Part shown: positions 18,001 through 30,000 of the stretch, piece after piece
How positions within the stretch are numbered: position 1 is the first letter of the stretch
How the letters are laid out: every line of letters starts with the position of its first letter
Assembly (NCBI GenBank): GCA_963665665.1
Contig: OY762428.1
Coordinates: 576,001 to 640,000, forward strand
Source of the DNA: Candidatus Kapaibacterium sp.
Lineage (GTDB): Bacteria > Bacteroidota > Ignavibacteria > Kapaibacteriales > UBA2268
Reading direction: 5' to 3'
Length of the DNA: 64,000 nucleotides
Made by a program: the position numbers

Positions 18001-21000
18001 GCAAGCCAGAATGCAGCATAACCTCCGGCACTTGCTCCAACGGCACAAAGCCCGTCTTTGTCAACATAAGGTTCTTTTGCCATGGCATCGGTTGCGGCAA
18101 GAATATCAGTCATTGGCATTCCACCCCAGTCTTTGCTGATAGCATCATTCCAATCCTGTCCAAAGCCGGGAAGCCCCCTGCGGTTAGGAGCCATAACAAT
18201 ATACCCCTGAGAAGCCATCATGTAGTGATTCCAACGAAAATGGAAACGTGGAGTTATTGTTGACTGCGGCCCACCCTGAAGATAAGTTATCATTGGATAT
18301 TTTTTGTTTGGATCAAAGTTCGGAGGATATAATACCCAGCAGTGAACTTTCTTACCATCCGTAGATTCTACCCATTTCTCTTCAACTTTAATTTTTTCGT
18401 ATTTTATAGTTCTTGAAAAGTTTTCTTTTGTAAGCTGTACCAGTTCGCCACCATTAATTTTCAGCCTGAAATATTCTATGGGGTGCTGAAAATCCTGGCG
18501 TCCAACAACAAGGTAATTTCCGTCAGGAGTAATTTGCATACCACCACCATAATTATAAAACCCCTTGGTCAGCATTTCGTATTTTCCGGAAAGATCAATC
18601 TTATAAACCTGGATGGTAGCATTATCTCCGGCAGTAAAATAAATATTTTTACTATCAGGCGACCAAATATAATCATAAACCCATTGATCCAGATTTTTCG
18701 TAAGATATTCAATTTTCCCCGACTGACGATTATAAAGCATAAGGCGAATTTTGTCTGATTCAAACCCTGCTCTTTCCTGGCTGGTGAATGCTATCCATTT
18801 TCCATCAGGAGAATATTGAGGGAACTTATCAAAACCAGGCATATCTTTGGTAATATTTCTGGTTTTACCGGTATTGATATCAACAAGAAAAATATCTGTA
18901 TTTGTATTCATCTCGTAGTCAGGGGTTTTCTTGCTCGTGTAGGCAATCTGGTTTGATTCAGGCGACCAGGCAATCTCCTCGGCTCCTCCGAATGGTTTTA
19001 CCGGGGTTTCATATATTTCACCGTTCATCAGATCCTTTGCCTTACCACCACCAACAGGCTGAACAAATAAATGAGAATAATACTCATCATTCCAAACACT
19101 CCAGTGCCTTATAGGAAGATCATCGTATATTCTGATCTTTGCCTGGCTATAATCCGGGTATTGCTCTGCAACAGTTTTCTTCATTTGAACATCCGATGTG
19201 TAACAAACATATTTTCCATCCGGAGATATGTGATATGTTTCAACACCATTCGGGGCGTTAGTGATCATTTTTGCGCTGCCATTGGGATATTCGCCCGTAT
19301 AAACCTGGTTGCTTCCACTGCCACTGTTCAAATAAGCAATTTTCTTTCCGTCTTTCATCCAGCTGATACTGCTTTTCCCGTTATTATCTGCCGGGATATT
19401 TTTTCTGTCCTCGCCGTCAATACCAATTGAATACACTTTCGATTTGAATTTATTTGATTTTATATCAGGTATCCTGACGCTGTAAATTAATGTTTTTCCA
19501 TCAGGAGAAAGAACTGGCGACCCGAGTCTGCTTAACGACATCAGATCCTCGGCAGTAAAAATTTTACCTTCATGCTTAGTTGTTTTGGGTATTATATCCT
19601 GTGCATTAAGTGTAATATTCAAAACAAACAGGCCCAAAAATATTATGAAAAGATTTCTCATTCTTTTATCCAAAGATTTATAAAACAAATAATTACAAGT
19701 TTATGCAAAATAATCAAAATGGTTGAAAAATTTAGGAATTTTTGGATTTTACAGAAGTAAATGTAAAATCCAAAAGATTCTCCAAGCTATTATCAATTAT
19801 CGATTTTTTTCATCCAGTAAATTTTTTAATCAGCTTTTTATCAAATTTATCCGATGACTTAAAGTCATCGGATAAATAACAACATAGATTAAATCTCTAC
19901 TATCATCTTCTTCAGCTTGTCAGTCTGATCATGAAGGTAATGGGAGAGACGCAAAGCAAGGTCCGGATGTTTGGTAAGCAGCGTCTTCAGTTTGTCTTTC
20001 GGCAGCTTCATTATTCTCGCGGAACTTATTACCGGCTGGGCTGTAACAGAGGATTTGTCATCCCACACAGCACCTTCACCGAAAATCTCTCCTGTACCAA
20101 TTACATTGATAGTACCGAGCCATCCCATTACCGAGTGCCTCATCTGCTCGACAGCGCCCTCACGAATAAGGTAAACATCCCTGTTCATATCATTTTCCCA
20201 AACAACTTCCTCATCGGGATCGTAATATCTTTCCATGGCAATGCCGGCTAATGATGAAATAGCCTCGTCATCCATTTCTTTGAAGAGATCAAGTGAATTC
20301 AGGAATTCTATTCTCTGCTGCAATGAATTAACCACCATATTTCTCATTTTATTTTCATCAGGTTTCTTCCATTCAAACCCGCTGAGTTCAAGAGCTTTGG
20401 CTGTTTTATCAGAAAGGATATCCATCTTTGTGGCGTTGATTTTATCGAAGTCCTCGCTCAGCCAACCCTTGTGAAGCATTATTGCCTCGATAAACGGCCT
20501 GAATCCATCTCTTTCGAAATTTGAATAAAGGAAGTGAATGAATTCTTTCAGGTCGAATGTTTCCACGTTAAGGTTCAACTTACTGCCGGATAATATGTCT
20601 GAAATATCAACCTTCATCGGATTTTCGATGTGGTAAGTACTGTTCAACAGGTTTTCCCTTCCGGAAAGAGTAAGCACGGCATTACTGACGTAATCAACAA
20701 AAGAAAAGTCGTAATAATCACCCTTTAGAACAGCACCAATATTTATAAATGCACGGAAAATGTTATAAAATGCATTGTCATCAATATTCTGCTGGTGAAC
20801 TCCTGTCTCCGAATTATAAACTATATTTCCTATACGATAAATATTGGTTTTTATCCCTTTTTCACGGGCTGCGATAACCCTTGTTTCGGCTTCGAGTTTT
20901 GTTTTAACATAATAGTTATCTACTTCCTGGCCAATATCACATTTATCCTCGGAAAATAGAACAACATCATTGCCGGGAACATGTCCGAGAGCAACTGAAA

Positions 21001-27000: not shown

Positions 27001-30000
27001 ATGTATGATGCTCACGTGTAAATTCAAATATTTTTTCACTTTCCTCTTTAGAAAGGAAAATAGTTTTAAGGCCGTTGGCCTTGCTTTCCATTTTATCAAA
27101 AGGATTAACCGCAACTGGTTCGGGAAGCGTTGAAAATTCTTCAAGCCAATAATTTTTATCCTCTTCGGCCCTGTTGCTTTTCAGGTAATTACTTTCATGG
27201 CCGGCAAAATCAGTATATGATTTTGTAATATTGGGTTCAGGTGTAACTCCTGCTTCAAATATTTGAGCTAATTCTGATATACGGTCTATCATCAGTTTCA
27301 TACACCAACCATCAACAATGGTGTGGTGAATATTCAGGTAATAGCCGTTTTTTCCGTCAGGAAGCTTTAAAAGCACAAATGAAAAAAGGTCAGAATCGAA
27401 TAGTTGAATTGGCTTACGGGAAATTGATTTTACCCATTCATTCATTTTAGTATTGTTTGTTTTTTCCCGTTCTTCAGATCCGGAAAAATCGATTATTTCA
27501 AATTCTCTTTCTTCATATTCAGCAATATATTGAAATATTTTATCTTCAACTTTAGTATATCTTATTCTTATACCTACGGTTTCATAAATGAAAAAATTGA
27601 TTGCTTTGGAGATTATTTCCGGAGAATAATCTTTTTTGAACCTTACTATCCTTGGAATATTCCACAAGGCGTTTTCCGGTTCCAGCAGGTCTATAAATAG
27701 CAGCCTCATTTGCGGGTGCGAAATCGGAATCAATTCTTTTTCCATTTTACTACCTTTGATTTTTCAATAAATGTTTTAACTATATAAAATTAATTTTTTT
27801 GCCTGGTTCACAATCATAAATACAGCTTGTCAGTTTATAATTCTCATCAAAAAAGTGCTGTCCGAATTTAAACTTTTTCCATTCTTTATTTTCAGAAATA
27901 ATTTTAAATTTTTCAAGGTCAAAATCCAGGCCCAGAACATCAATCTTAAAGCCCTTACCTAAAGCCTTAATGAAACTTTCTTTAATCGTCCATAATGTAT
28001 AAAACCTGTTAAATCTTTCTGCGTAAGTACTTGAATTTATGAAATCAATCTGTCGCCTGTTAAACACAGTTGGCGCTATCTCATCAATATCAATATCAAT
28101 AATCTCCTCAATATCAATACCACAGGGCTGATCTGAAATTATGCAGGCAATATAATCACCTGAGTGAGATATGTTAAAGTAAAAATCCGAAGGCATTGCC
28201 GGATATGGCTTCAAATCCTTATCTGTTCTTATTATAATATCTTCGAAATTAATACCGGATTTTCTTCTGATCACTTCCCGAATAAGCCAGTCACCTTTAA
28301 GTGATCTGAGACGGTCGCTATCTAACTTCTTTTTTTGAATATACTTTTTTCTCTCGAATGGCAAATAATTCAAAAGGAAGGAATAATCTTCCGATTTCTC
28401 TGATTTTTCGATATAACTTAGGTAAATCTCGTTCAATCCCCGCCCTGTTTATACAATATTAAAGTTTAAAAGTAAGAAAATTTAGCAATAATTCATACAA
28501 ATTTATTAGTGATTCCACATTTCTTTATAAAATGAAAAGAAAATTTATTAAGAACAACTCAATTTATTGATTAATGATTTTATTTCAATATTTTTGGGAC
28601 AAAGAAATGATGTCTGCGAAGTTTATAATTGTTACAAATGATAAAATTCAGACATTCAAAGAATAAAATTTGAAAGCAAAATATTTTTGAAAAAGAAAAG
28701 ATCATTATTTAAAATTATCGGCCCCGGCTTGTTAATAGCAGCTACCGGCGTTGGTGCGGGAGATTTGGCCGGCGGAGCATTTGCCGGATCGAAACTTGGG
28801 CTTGCAGTCCTGTGGGCTGTACTATTAGGGGCAGCTTTTAAATATGTAATTACCGAGGGCCTTGCCCGTTGGCAACTCGTTTCCGGCGAGACATTACTCG
28901 AGGGTGCCTTGCTGAGGTTCGGAAAATTCGTTCAGATTTTCTTTTTATTCTATCTTGTTCTTTGGTCATACACTGTAGGTTCAGCTTTGATAAATGCATG
29001 TGGTGTTGCAGGCCATGCTCTTTTTCCCATATTTGATGATCATACAACAGGGAAAATATTCTGGGGTATAGTTCATAGCCTTGCCGGCTTTTTGCTTATC
29101 CGTTTCGGCCGCTTCTCTGTATTCGAAAAAGTAATGTCAGTCCTCATCCTTTTCATGTTCATCACTACATTACTAACTGCAATACTTTCAGGCCCGGAAA
29201 TTATTGAATTAATTAAGGGCAGCTTTATACCTTCGATACCTGAATATTTAGATTCAAACAATATAAACCAGGGGCCATCCTGGACCCTGGCCCTGATCGG
29301 GGGCGTTGGCGGCACACTAACCATTCTCTGCTATGGCTACTGGATTAGAGAAAACAATCGGGAAGGCAAAGAACAGATATCATTAACCAGGATAGACTTA
29401 TTAACTGCATACTTCATTACAGCGCTTTTTGGAATATCTATGGTGATTATTGCTTCCGGTTCAAATATTGACAAACAAAGCAGTTCTCTTCTTATTGTTA
29501 ATCTTGCCTCAATTCTGGAATCAACCCTTGGCAAAACCGGTTCAATAATATTTTTGATCGGCGCATGGAGCGCAATTTTCAGCAGCCTGCTCGGAGTCTG
29601 GCAATCTGTTCCATACCTTTTTGCTGATTTCATTATGATTTTTCAGTTCAAAGGAAAAATTGGAAATTATAAATCAAAAGTTATTGATACCAGAGCCTTA
29701 CCATACAGGCTATATTTATTTTTACTCGCAAGTATACCCTTAACAGGTTTGTTTTGGAAATTTGTTACTGTACAGAAAATATATGCAATTTTCGGGGCTT
29801 TCATTGTCCCGCTTACTGCAATTGCATTGCTGATTTTAAATAACAAGAAAATAATGACTTCAGAATATAAAAATTCTCTCCTGAACAATTTAATATTGAT
29901 CATTATAGTAATGTTTTTTATTTTACTTGGATTTCCTGAAATTATGAAACTTTTTCAGGGATTTATCAGATAGTTTTAATATTTTTATCGGATTGTTAAA

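Follow-up and report, generated by a model that had tools for sequence, protein, structure and literature searches.

What does a sensor-type fold do at the end of a peptide assembly line? The question is raised by a gene within a 64,000-nucleotide stretch of Candidatus Kapaibacterium sp. DNA (contig OY762428.1, positions 576,001 to 640,000; here, the window), which encodes an NRPS whose terminal thioester reductase (R) is fused to a cyclic-nucleotide-binding-like (CNB) domain. To our knowledge, NRPS output is described as being controlled almost entirely through transcription, with helper proteins such as MbtH in addition. A release domain that carries a sensor-type fold would suggest that release itself is controlled directly, by allostery or through a partner, and post-translational control of this step makes sense for a reactive aldehyde. 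We report that the R-CNB fusion is widespread, has apparently not been described, and may switch peptide release once the enzyme has been synthesized.

Domain organization of the locus

All features are given in window positions and lie on the minus strand. The NRPS is encoded by an ATG-started open reading frame at 19889..27745, and its 2,618-aa translation contains the Pfam domains Condensation, AMP-binding, and PP-binding twice each, NAD_binding_4 at residues 2116-2357, and cNMP_binding at residues 2506-2593. The resulting order, C-A-T-C-A-T-R followed by a CNB-like tail, is the architecture proposed in the initial annotation. The N-terminal condensation domain, C1 (26426..27736; residues ~4-440), matched Pfam Condensation in two stretches and carries HHTIVDG at 140-146. 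It is followed by the adenylation domain A1 (24941..26353; ~465-935) and the carrier domain T1 (24692..24880; 956-1018), found by Pfam and by its GGHSL serine motif at 979-983. The second module consists of C2 (23345..24640; 1036-1467), which matched Pfam and has HHIIFDG at 1162-1168, A2 (21821..23287; 1487-1975), and T2 (21566..21760; ~1996-2060), again with a Pfam match and GGHSL at 2019-2023. The R domain, with an SDR fold (20312..21418; ~2110-2478; NAD_binding_4, 3.9e-49), leads into the CNB-fold tail (19892..20311; 2479-2618). The core motifs are intact throughout, with HHxxxDG in both C domains, the GGxS carrier serine in both T domains, and GKVDR, containing the A10 lysine, at 925 and 1965.

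The adjacent PPTase gene that had been noted before is present at 27780..28436 and encodes an Sfp/AusB-like 4'-phosphopantetheinyl transferase of 218 aa (Pfam ACPS, 6.2e-14; AASDHPPT_N, 9.7e-13). It lies upstream on the same strand, ends 35 nt before the NRPS start, and is the only biosynthetic neighbor of the NRPS gene; the two genes probably form one operon. The window also encodes four proteins with T9SS sorting domains, which make a host in the Bacteroidota probable.

Predicted product

The R domain contains TGATGYLG at residues 2117-2124 (TGxxGxxG) and YVKTK at 2279-2283 (Y-x-x-x-K), both near-invariant in a 67-sequence alignment, and Foldseek matched it to the R domain of MxaA (4w4t, 3.3e-25), an archaeal T-R structure (6vtj), and the R domain of AusA (4f6c). 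C1 begins at about residue 4, with no carrier domain upstream in cis or in the cluster, and its active site is intact. Judged solely by this position, C1 would be a starter C domain that N-acylates the first residue. Its PDB relatives are mixed at similar E-values, comprising elongation domains (BacC, PvdL, and TycC) and starter domains (CDA 4jn3, RzmA 7c1h, and SrfAA 8f7h).

We read the 10-residue adenylation codes at motif-anchored positions, which we take to be those of the PheA numbering. The A1 code, DAIVIGGVIK, describes a hydrophobic pocket and had no match in the main text of PMC12283262. The A2 code, DFWNIGMVHK, is threonine-type and stands among the Thr/Dhb-activating signatures in section 13 of the same paper (PMC12283262). 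The likely product is an N-acyl-(hydrophobic)-Thr aldehyde or alcohol. From the domain order and motifs, the starter C domain would N-acylate the hydrophobic residue loaded by A1, and C2 would then couple it to the threonine that A2 loads. Using NAD(P)H, the R domain would free the thioester in the form of an N-acyl-dipeptide aldehyde or, if it reduces twice, of the corresponding alcohol. The earlier proposal of a dipeptide-aldehyde-type line is amended in one respect: the N-terminal C domain with its intact HHxxxDG would imply an N-acylated product and not a free dipeptide aldehyde or a pyrazinone.

Fold of the tail and its junction with the reductase

The tail scored 37.4 bits against Pfam cNMP_binding (PF00027; cut-off, 27.5), and its best solved sequence relative was CNB-B of PKG (4z07, E = 1.2e-9 with a 163-aa query), both in agreement with the initial annotation. 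AlphaFold2 modeled the tail alone as a CNB fold (pLDDT, 89.7), which Foldseek matched with a probability of 1.00 to PKG (4ku8, E = 5.2e-12), Thermus thermophilus CAP (4ev0), and GlxR (4cyd). A profile match above the cut-off and closest solved relatives that bind cGMP or cAMP are what one would expect of a working cAMP/cGMP sensor that switches the assembly line on or off; the loss of the clamp Arg described below is not.

The AlphaFold2 model of R plus tail (539 aa) formed one body, with a pLDDT of 93.7 and a pTM of 0.90. Tail-less relatives end at the equivalent of residues ~2470-2490, where the CNB N-helix begins. Because the tail starts about where the tail-less relatives end, there is no linker between the two, and the model suggests that R and tail are a single, rigid, linker-free body. 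In the models, the C-terminus is formed by a 24-residue C-helix that resembles the dimer helix of CRP. No helix-turn-helix DNA-binding domain follows this helix, as the protein stops at residue 2618, and we rejected a CRP/FNR transcription factor identity for the tail on this ground. The linker-free junction, the one confident body, and the C-helix would suit a tail without signal input that is structural or oligomerizing, such as a CRP-like dimerizer or a brace for the C-terminal subdomain of R. However, sister R domains (Paenibacillus, Clostridium, and AusA) work without a tail.

Distribution and origin of the fusion

We scored the tail as present when one BLAST HSP spanned the R domain through the tail. 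By this criterion, it was present in 77 of 119 proteins among the matches listed and in 51 of the best 60; two proteins (P0010 and P0082) failed the BLAST-span criterion yet contain PF00027. More than 100 protein clusters from many phyla share the conserved fusion. This recurrence, which extends the earlier report of many clusters, is far beyond chance and shows that the R-CNB fusion is a family and not an assembly artifact. We did not find the fusion in 60 relatives or in 400 genomes of the same phylum. As in the earlier literature search, no published account of an NRPS reductase-CNB fusion turned up in the searched literature (open-access text).

When the tree was restricted to the columns of the R domain (83 rows, 33 of them tailed), 33/33 tailed rows grouped in one clade (SH-aLRT, 92), with three tail-less Victivallales sequences nested inside. 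Tail presence required 2 changes on this tree, versus a mean of 26 when shuffled. These results fit one fusion event and one nested loss, with spread over many phyla. The R-CNB end caps proteins of ~1,080 to 5,238 aa, in lines that range from a single module to four or more, and the last-module codes vary widely (Thr-like, Asn-like, acidic-like, and hydrophobic). The term bimodular used in the initial annotation therefore describes this copy but not the family. Since the R-CNB end occurs on lines of varied length and last-residue code, the tail goes with the reductase and not with a particular dipeptide.

Conserved residues of the tail

In the PDB sequence alignment, the RTA of PKG corresponds to VTA in the tail, so that the position of the phosphate-clamp Arg is Val2567, and FGE, including Glu2557, is kept, as had been reported. 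These residues belong to a degenerate phosphate-binding cassette, G2552...F-G-E2557...S-S-V2567-T-A-Q2570 (20036..20092), which was defined by PDB and family alignments. The tail thus has the profile score and the fold of PF00027 but not its Glu + Arg cassette, the Arg position being Val. The initial annotation had presented the replaced Arg as a feature of this copy, but its loss is a property of the whole family: of 113 tails attached to an NRPS, only 2 have Arg at this position. The cassette Glu, which binds the ribose 2'-OH, occurs in no more than 61 of the 119 rows of the alignment.

These counts strengthen the earlier doubt about cAMP or cGMP as the ligand. The window's copy retains F-G-E and T-A of the cassette, and the genome has two class III cyclase-type matches. 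Set against this are the scarcity of the clamp Arg and the ribose-binding Glu and the scan of 32 related loci, in which we saw no adjacent cyclase gene. Ligands other than cNMPs are bound by many CNB folds of the CRP/FNR type. We consider a working cAMP/cGMP sensor very improbable, and by its sequences the family overall does not belong to the canonical cNMP binders.

A second motif, S2538-V-M-G-W-L-G-T2545 (20111..20134), lies on the beta4-beta5 hairpin. In the family alignment it reads S-x-x-G-W-x-G-T, with S in 97, G in 116, W in 113, G in 112, and T in 99 of 119 rows, and G-W is kept in 32/32 tailed loci. G2530 (119/119) and G2556 (110/119) are also conserved, and position 2570 is E in 92/119 rows and Q in the window's copy. 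The most conserved positions (G2552, G2556, S2565, T2568, A2569, E2570, and G-W) lie on the cassette and the neighboring hairpin and not on the C-helix. Together with the rarity of the clamp Arg, this pattern indicates purifying selection on a pocket-like surface unlike a cNMP site, and it is not what a structural tail would predict. Some subgroups, such as those of Vibrio (L040) and Francisella, have a strongly degenerate cassette, as a structural tail would allow; the subgroup of the window's copy still has F-G-E.

The pocket might instead bind the line's own chemistry (acyl chain, peptidyl-pantetheine, or freed aldehyde) for feedback inhibition, exporter hand-off, or substrate positioning. 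Such a role would explain why the tail accompanies the reductase across line lengths and residue codes, and retention of Glu and Thr-Ala with loss of Arg would fit an uncharged, hydroxyl-bearing ligand. An MFS transporter gene adjoins the NRPS gene in 9 scanned loci. However, the tail motifs are constant while the last-module codes are diverse, which makes a product-specific pocket unlikely unless the common aldehyde or acyl part is read, and we judge this explanation improbable.

Signaling genes beside relatives

Using a local SpoIIE profile, we found a SpoIIE/PP2C gene at 9 of 32 related tailed loci and at 0 of 49 other loci; kin are not independent, and this association represents about three independent lineages. 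Full sets of PP2C, HATPase_c_2, and STAS genes on the NRPS strand occur at six of these nine loci (L015, L016, L040, L062, L063, and L066) in three lineages, with the canonical SSAGLR motif in the STAS proteins and N and G boxes in the kinases. In two Francisella genomes of ~2 Mb, the sole SpoIIE gene (1 match each) is the one in the NRPS operon. A STAS-fused acyl-CoA synthetase is encoded at L084. Within the DNA examined, which includes many short contigs, we saw no SpoIIE gene at 23 of the 32 tailed loci. The window's own operon holds only the PPTase and NRPS genes, with no signaling gene and no partner-switching set. The only HATPase_c_2 gene of the window (10710-11129) is ~9 kb away, beyond unrelated genes, and all 15 SpoIIE genes of this genome lie outside the window.

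The nearest relative on the R-domain tree, L083, has a diguanylate cyclase gene (HAMP-GAF-GGDEF) that overlaps the NRPS stop, which raises the possibility that the ligand of the tail is a different nucleotide messenger, such as c-di-GMP. The CRP-like protein Clp binds c-di-GMP, and it does so through residues outside the classical pocket and through its DNA-binding domain. The tail lacks a DNA-binding domain, and a GGDEF neighbor was found at only 1 of the 32 related loci, so that we find this option as hard to credit as a cAMP/cGMP sensor. A brace would not be expected to turn up repeatedly in operons with genes for sensor phosphatases, kinases, and a GGDEF protein, and a tail without signal input is a doubtful explanation, if a better one than binding of the line's own chemistry.

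Role of the tail

Two observations argue for a regulatory role: the tail docks on R without a linker, and relatives repeatedly share operons with partner-switching genes. A non-cNMP regulatory module is the likeliest identity of the tail. In the explanation we favor, to which we give about even weight, the locus is a two-gene acyl-dipeptide aldehyde/alcohol unit whose tail controls release post-translationally. The fusion would have arisen once and spread, in a lineage that has lost the clamp, partly kept the cassette, and gained the invariant G-W hairpin motif. The tail might read a non-cNMP small ligand, which would fit the window's subgroup with F-G-E, or it might dock or take a signal from protein partners, as the PP2C/RsbW/STAS operons of relatives suggest. 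With either input, the NAD(P)H-dependent step that frees a reactive aldehyde would be gated. More tentatively, we propose that the tail is a receiver that opens or blocks the reductase, driven by a PP2C/RsbW/STAS cascade in some lineages and by a non-cNMP ligand in others, including this one.

The family-wide loss of Arg, the single-origin clade, the portability, and the signaling neighbors are new findings of this work. If release is gated in this way, the decision to free the aldehyde would fall once the megasynthase is complete and loaded, the tail would be the first sensor domain inside an NRPS termination module, and partner switching would have a new, sigma-factor-independent output. For orphan partner-switching modules without a sigma factor, the R-CNB end is a specific candidate for the output. 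It is also a portable release module that, if switchable, could gate engineered assembly lines, and it flags unexplored producers of acyl-peptide aldehydes or alcohols, mostly uncultured bacteria.

Comparison with known systems

AusA/AusB (PznA) of Staphylococcus aureus likewise pairs a PPTase with a dimodular NRPS that ends in a thioester reductase, and in the aureusimine system this reductase releases a dipeptide aldehyde, according to PMC8210680. AusA and AusB were the best named NCBIfam models for our two proteins, and AusA also supplied a Foldseek match for R. AusA is A-T-C-A-T-R, to which the window's NRPS adds an N-terminal C domain and the CNB tail. The NRPS scored 1658.8 bits against the AusA model NF047350 (cut-off, 2500), and the PPTase scored 80.8 against AusB (cut-off, 225). 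We rejected identity as an AusA aureusimine synthetase on the basis of the score below the equivalog cut-off and the extra C and CNB domains. The free amine of the Aus product cyclizes to pyrazinones, which is impossible for an N-acylated product. The gut-commensal dipeptide-aldehyde NRPS family (Guo et al. 2017, as covered in the review PMC8210680) is also of the C-A-T-C-A-T-R type, with ~2,500 aa in Clostridia, and gave tail-less matches covering ~80% of the query region; the same review states that an N-acyl tail can stabilize the aldehyde (PMC8210680). Unlike the window's NRPS, Clostridium and Paenibacillus matches end with R and have no PF00027. MxaA, the archaeal T-R, and MxcG share the SDR fold, both R motifs, and reductive release with the window's R, but none of the solved R domains among the matches listed has a C-terminal CNB fold.

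The operons of relatives resemble RsbU/RsbV/RsbW in having a sensor PP2C (SpoIIE), an RsbW-like HATPase_c_2 kinase, and a STAS protein with the SSAGLR phospho-site. They differ in that no sigma factor gene was found among the ORFs scanned, and their output may be the NRPS tail; the window's own locus has no module of this type. With the CNB domains of PKG (CNB-B), PKA, and CRP/GlxR, the tail shares its fold and helix-barrel-helix order. It differs from them in the family-wide loss of the clamp Arg and in the added G-W hairpin motif. It has no kinase, channel, or DNA-binding output, and its output would be the NRPS reductase on its N-terminal side.

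Results

The window NRPS is a genuine member of an undescribed enzyme variant

The NRPS open reading frame (19889..27745, minus strand) starts with ATG and encodes 2,618 amino acids. Pfam analysis found two Condensation domains, two AMP-binding domains (with AMP-binding_C), two PP-binding domains, a terminal thioester reductase (R) domain (NAD_binding_4, residues 2116-2357), and a cNMP_binding match at residues 2506-2593 (37.4 bits against a cut-off of 27.5), bearing out the architecture proposed in the initial annotation. The catalytic motifs are intact, including the condensation motifs HHTIVDG (residues 140-146) and HHIIFDG (residues 1162-1168), both GGHSL carrier serine motifs, and the R-domain nucleotide-binding TGATGYLG (residues 2117-2124) and Y-x-x-x-K YVKTK (residues 2279-2283) motifs. 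The adjoining PPTase gene that had been reported is also present and encodes an Sfp-type enzyme (27780-28436, minus strand) 35 nt upstream of the NRPS on the same strand. Among named NCBIfam models, the NRPS came nearest to AusA (1658.8 bits) and the PPTase to AusB (80.8 bits), each scoring under the cut-off (2500 and 225, respectively). In line with the initial annotation, searches of open-access text turned up no paper on an NRPS-reductase-CNB fusion. These results confirm that the window NRPS is genuine, not an artefact, and that it belongs to an undescribed variant among reductive-release NRPSs.

We considered and rejected the downstream S9 prolyl-oligopeptidase gene (17607-19688) as a cluster member. 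Orthologues with 49 to 61% identity were present in 23 of 24 same-family genomes that have no tailed NRPS, and we therefore assign it to the core gene set of this bacterial family. A synteny check was uninformative on the island borders, with four relatives having only the S9 gene in common with the window neighbourhood. An Rfam scan of the 64-kb window returned no match.

The tail is a CNB fold that has lost the canonical cNMP site

A phmmer search of PDB sequences with the last 163 residues gave 43 distinct matches at an E value of ≤0.01, led by the CNB-B domain of PKG (4z07; E = 1.2e-9). Relative to 4z07, the tail (residues 2479-2618) retains F-G-E, and V-T-A stands opposite the PKG R-T-A. 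The tail as modeled by AlphaFold2 (pLDDT, 89.7) matched PKG (4ku8; 5.2e-12), Thermus thermophilus CAP, and GlxR, and a language-model atlas query returned nothing but cNMP_binding clusters. The tail is thus a true CNB fold but lacks a canonical cNMP site.

We assembled 118 proteins in which a single BLAST high-scoring segment pair spanned the R domain into the tail. Six alignment rows (P0131, P0160, P0213, P0244, P0250, and P0257) were multi-CNB proteins that are not NRPSs; without them the family comprises 113 rows, the query among them. Counts per column were taken on the full 119-row alignment, before these six were removed. The clamp position (2567) is Val in 47 rows, Ile in 23, and Ala in 11, and the cassette Glu (2557) is kept in 61 of 119. 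The initial annotation was right that the phosphate-binding Arg is replaced in this copy (Val2567), but the replacement is not particular to it: only two of the 113 family tails (rows P0076 and P0084) have Arg, and loss of the clamp Arg is family-wide. That the tail is a true cNMP sensor, as its closest PDB match might suggest, is very improbable in a family with this clamp position.

Other positions are strongly conserved: G2530 (119/119 rows), S2538 (97/119), G2541 (116/119), W2542 (113/119), G2544 (112/119), T2545 (99/119), G2556 (110/119), and E2570 (92/119), the last being Gln in the query. Alignment to PKG places the G-W motif on the beta4-beta5 turn, just ahead of the beta5 residues that we take to make the base contacts in PKG CNB-B. 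The tail family has its own conserved surface beside the old pocket.

The tail follows the R domain directly

Tail-less relatives from Paenibacillus, Marininema, Lysobacteraceae, and Clostridia stop 365 to 394 residues past the start of the R match, while tailed relatives stop 505 to 525 residues past it. The N-terminal CNB helix (IEFLNSLD, from residue 2479) therefore starts at about the end of ordinary R domains, with no linker. AlphaFold2 modeling of residues 2080-2618 from a 67-row alignment gave a two-domain body with a pLDDT of 93.7 and a pTM of 0.90, in which the R part matched the R domains of MxaA (4w4t; 3.3e-25) and AusA (4f6c) and an archaeal T-R structure (6vtj). In this model, the R domain and tail form one unit. 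Such a compact body would also suit a plain structural or dimerizing part, a reading that we consider unlikely, with the conserved surface beside the old pocket in view.

R-CNB is a widely distributed release module

A word-index search with the tail alone recovered only the query among 289 candidates because the tails are too divergent for a word index. An index-free search of 1.84 billion representatives gave 3,120 matches at an E value of ≤1e-3, 118 of them at ≤1e-10. Among the 150 matches listed, the best single-stretch matches were all C-terminal in NRPS proteins or R fragments, and the remaining ones were cNMP-domain proteins of other kinds, many of which contain multiple CNB repeats. 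A metagenome scan added at least three further tailed loci. The tail is carried by proteins of ~1,080 amino acids (A-T-R-CNB), ~1,575 amino acids (C-A-T-R-CNB), ~2,600 and ~3,640 amino acids, and up to 5,238 amino acids. The last-module codes of these enzymes vary (DFWSTGMVHK, 14; DLTKIGEVGK, 9; DAAHVGEVAK, 8; DFWNIGMVHK, 6; and many singletons). A tail that binds its own enzyme's substrate or product would fit the fusion to the release domain, but we think this improbable for a family serving such varied last modules.

By record title, tailed loci occur in Bacteroidota, Vulcanimicrobiota, Synergistia, Wallbacteria, Negativicutes/Bacillota, Geobacter/Desulfuromonadales, and, within Pseudomonadota, Vibrio profundum and Francisella spp.; Acidobacteria and Eremiobacterota were named among the protein homology-search matches. 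We built a midpoint-rooted tree of R domains only (83 rows), leaving out four loci that run off the ends of their contigs (L033, L037, L061, and L078). All 33 tailed rows fell in a single clade (SH-aLRT, 92), and the tail label required two changes on the tree versus a mean of 26.2 after shuffling. With this midpoint rooting, R-CNB looks like a single-origin, widely transferred release module. Three tail-less R domains from Victivallales (loci L068, L072, and L075) are nested within the tailed clade, which looks like secondary tail loss and offers a natural comparison for tail function.

The window's own genome has one copy of the tailed NRPS. We did not find the NRPS-type tail in 60 relatives, where the lone match was a different, 626-amino-acid CNB protein, or in another 400 genomes from the phylum (E ≤ 1e-25). 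The gene is patchy among its kin.

Some related loci carry partner-switching genes

We surveyed the neighbours of tailed loci with Pfam and ran local profiles over all fetched loci. Nine of 32 related tailed loci (L006, L008, L015, L016, L021, L040, L062, L063, and L066) had a SpoIIE/PP2C gene, as against none of 49 other loci and, by local profile, none of L086-L114. Full sets of PP2C, RsbW-like HATPase_c_2 kinase, and STAS genes share the strand of the NRPS, and where the spacing was recorded, neighbouring genes are a few bases apart or overlap by a few bases. The order is NRPS-PP2C-kinase-STAS in L015 and L016, PPTase-STAS-kinase-PP2C-NRPS in the Francisella loci L062, L063, and L066, and STAS-NRPS-MFS-kinase-PP2C in the Vibrio profundum locus L040. 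The canonical motif Y-x-S-S-x-G-L-R is found in the STAS proteins, and N and G boxes are found in the kinases. Loci of this kind are spread over three separate subclades of the R-domain tree. In two Francisella genomes (~2 Mb), the sole SpoIIE-family gene is the NRPS-operon copy (one match each); the Vibrio profundum genome has three SpoIIE matches. Francisella spp. and Vibrio profundum are cultured bacteria that bear a tailed NRPS in operons with a complete PP2C/RsbW/STAS module.

Two Negativicutes-type operons encode 5TMR-LYT membrane sensor regions, one in the L016 RsbW-like kinase (11740-13431) and one in the L021 PP2C (11640-12476), and the 542-amino-acid L015 kinase (12975-14603) has a similarly long N-terminal part with no Pfam match. 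The input to the Negativicutes-type module is probably a signal from the membrane or cell envelope. A complex prediction with the L015 kinase domain, STAS protein, and tail, in which the tail was set as the partner, gave scores of 0.01, 0.32, and 0.01, which speak neither for nor against binding.

MFS exporter and PPTase genes are also common beside tailed loci, and L084 has a STAS-fused acyl-CoA synthetase as a neighbour. The R-domain tree places L083 nearest to the window enzyme, and the stop of the L083 NRPS is overlapped by a gene for a HAMP-GAF-GGDEF diguanylate cyclase (L083:11608-13731). This overlap would suit a tail that binds another nucleotide messenger such as c-di-GMP, but we give that reading very little weight. 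In contrast to the loci with signalling neighbours, the window operon consists of the PPTase and NRPS only, with no signalling gene in it, and the genome's 15 SpoIIE genes are all outside the window.

Other features of the window

The only HATPase_c_2 gene in the window (10710-11129, minus strand), ~9 kb from the NRPS, encodes a 139-amino-acid RsbW/SpoIIAB-like protein (Pfam, 5.7e-28) directly upstream of a 726-amino-acid protein (8514-10694, minus strand) with only a weak NACHT/P-loop match. No STAS or PP2C gene adjoins the pair (8514-11129, minus strand), which we annotate as a putative orphan kinase-NTPase pair. The region 50269-57804 (plus strand) is probably an integrated mobile element, with a tyrosine integrase (50269-51606, plus strand; Phage_integrase and Arm-DNA-bind_5) followed by five ORFs of 245 to 419 amino acids with no Pfam match and a GC content down to 0.30 to 0.31 in two 2-kb windows. 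A Por_Secre_tail T9SS sorting domain ends four proteins (1801-2850, 36717-41453, 57797-59989, and 61175-63577), one of them a 1,578-amino-acid VWA/Ig-repeat protein; these domains suggest that the host is a member of the Bacteroidota.

Discussion

In the best-supported view, we infer that the tail has ceased to sense cAMP or cGMP and acts as a regulatory module in product release. The window subgroup retains G-E and T-A in the cassette, so a small uncharged ligand is favoured as what its tail would read. The cassette Glu is also lost in the partner-switch-linked subgroups, and a protein input to the tail is therefore favoured there.

We obtained the adenylation codes DAIVIGGVIK (A1) and DFWNIGMVHK (A2) by motif anchoring, with code positions that we assume follow PheA numbering. 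The first condensation domain (C1) is N-terminal, has an intact active site, and has no carrier protein upstream, so it may be a lipo-initiation domain; its PDB relatives do not sort starter from other C-domain subtypes. The A2 code is among the Thr/Dhb-activating signatures in section 13 of PMC12283262, a paper whose main text does not contain the A1 code. The review PMC8210680 describes gut-commensal dipeptide aldehydes that can be stabilized by an N-acyl tail. Taking these features together with release as in AusA, we predict an N-acyl-(hydrophobic)-Thr aldehyde, or alcohol, as the product. AusA makes a dipeptide aldehyde by reductive release, and release as an aldehyde or alcohol is predicted for the window NRPS.
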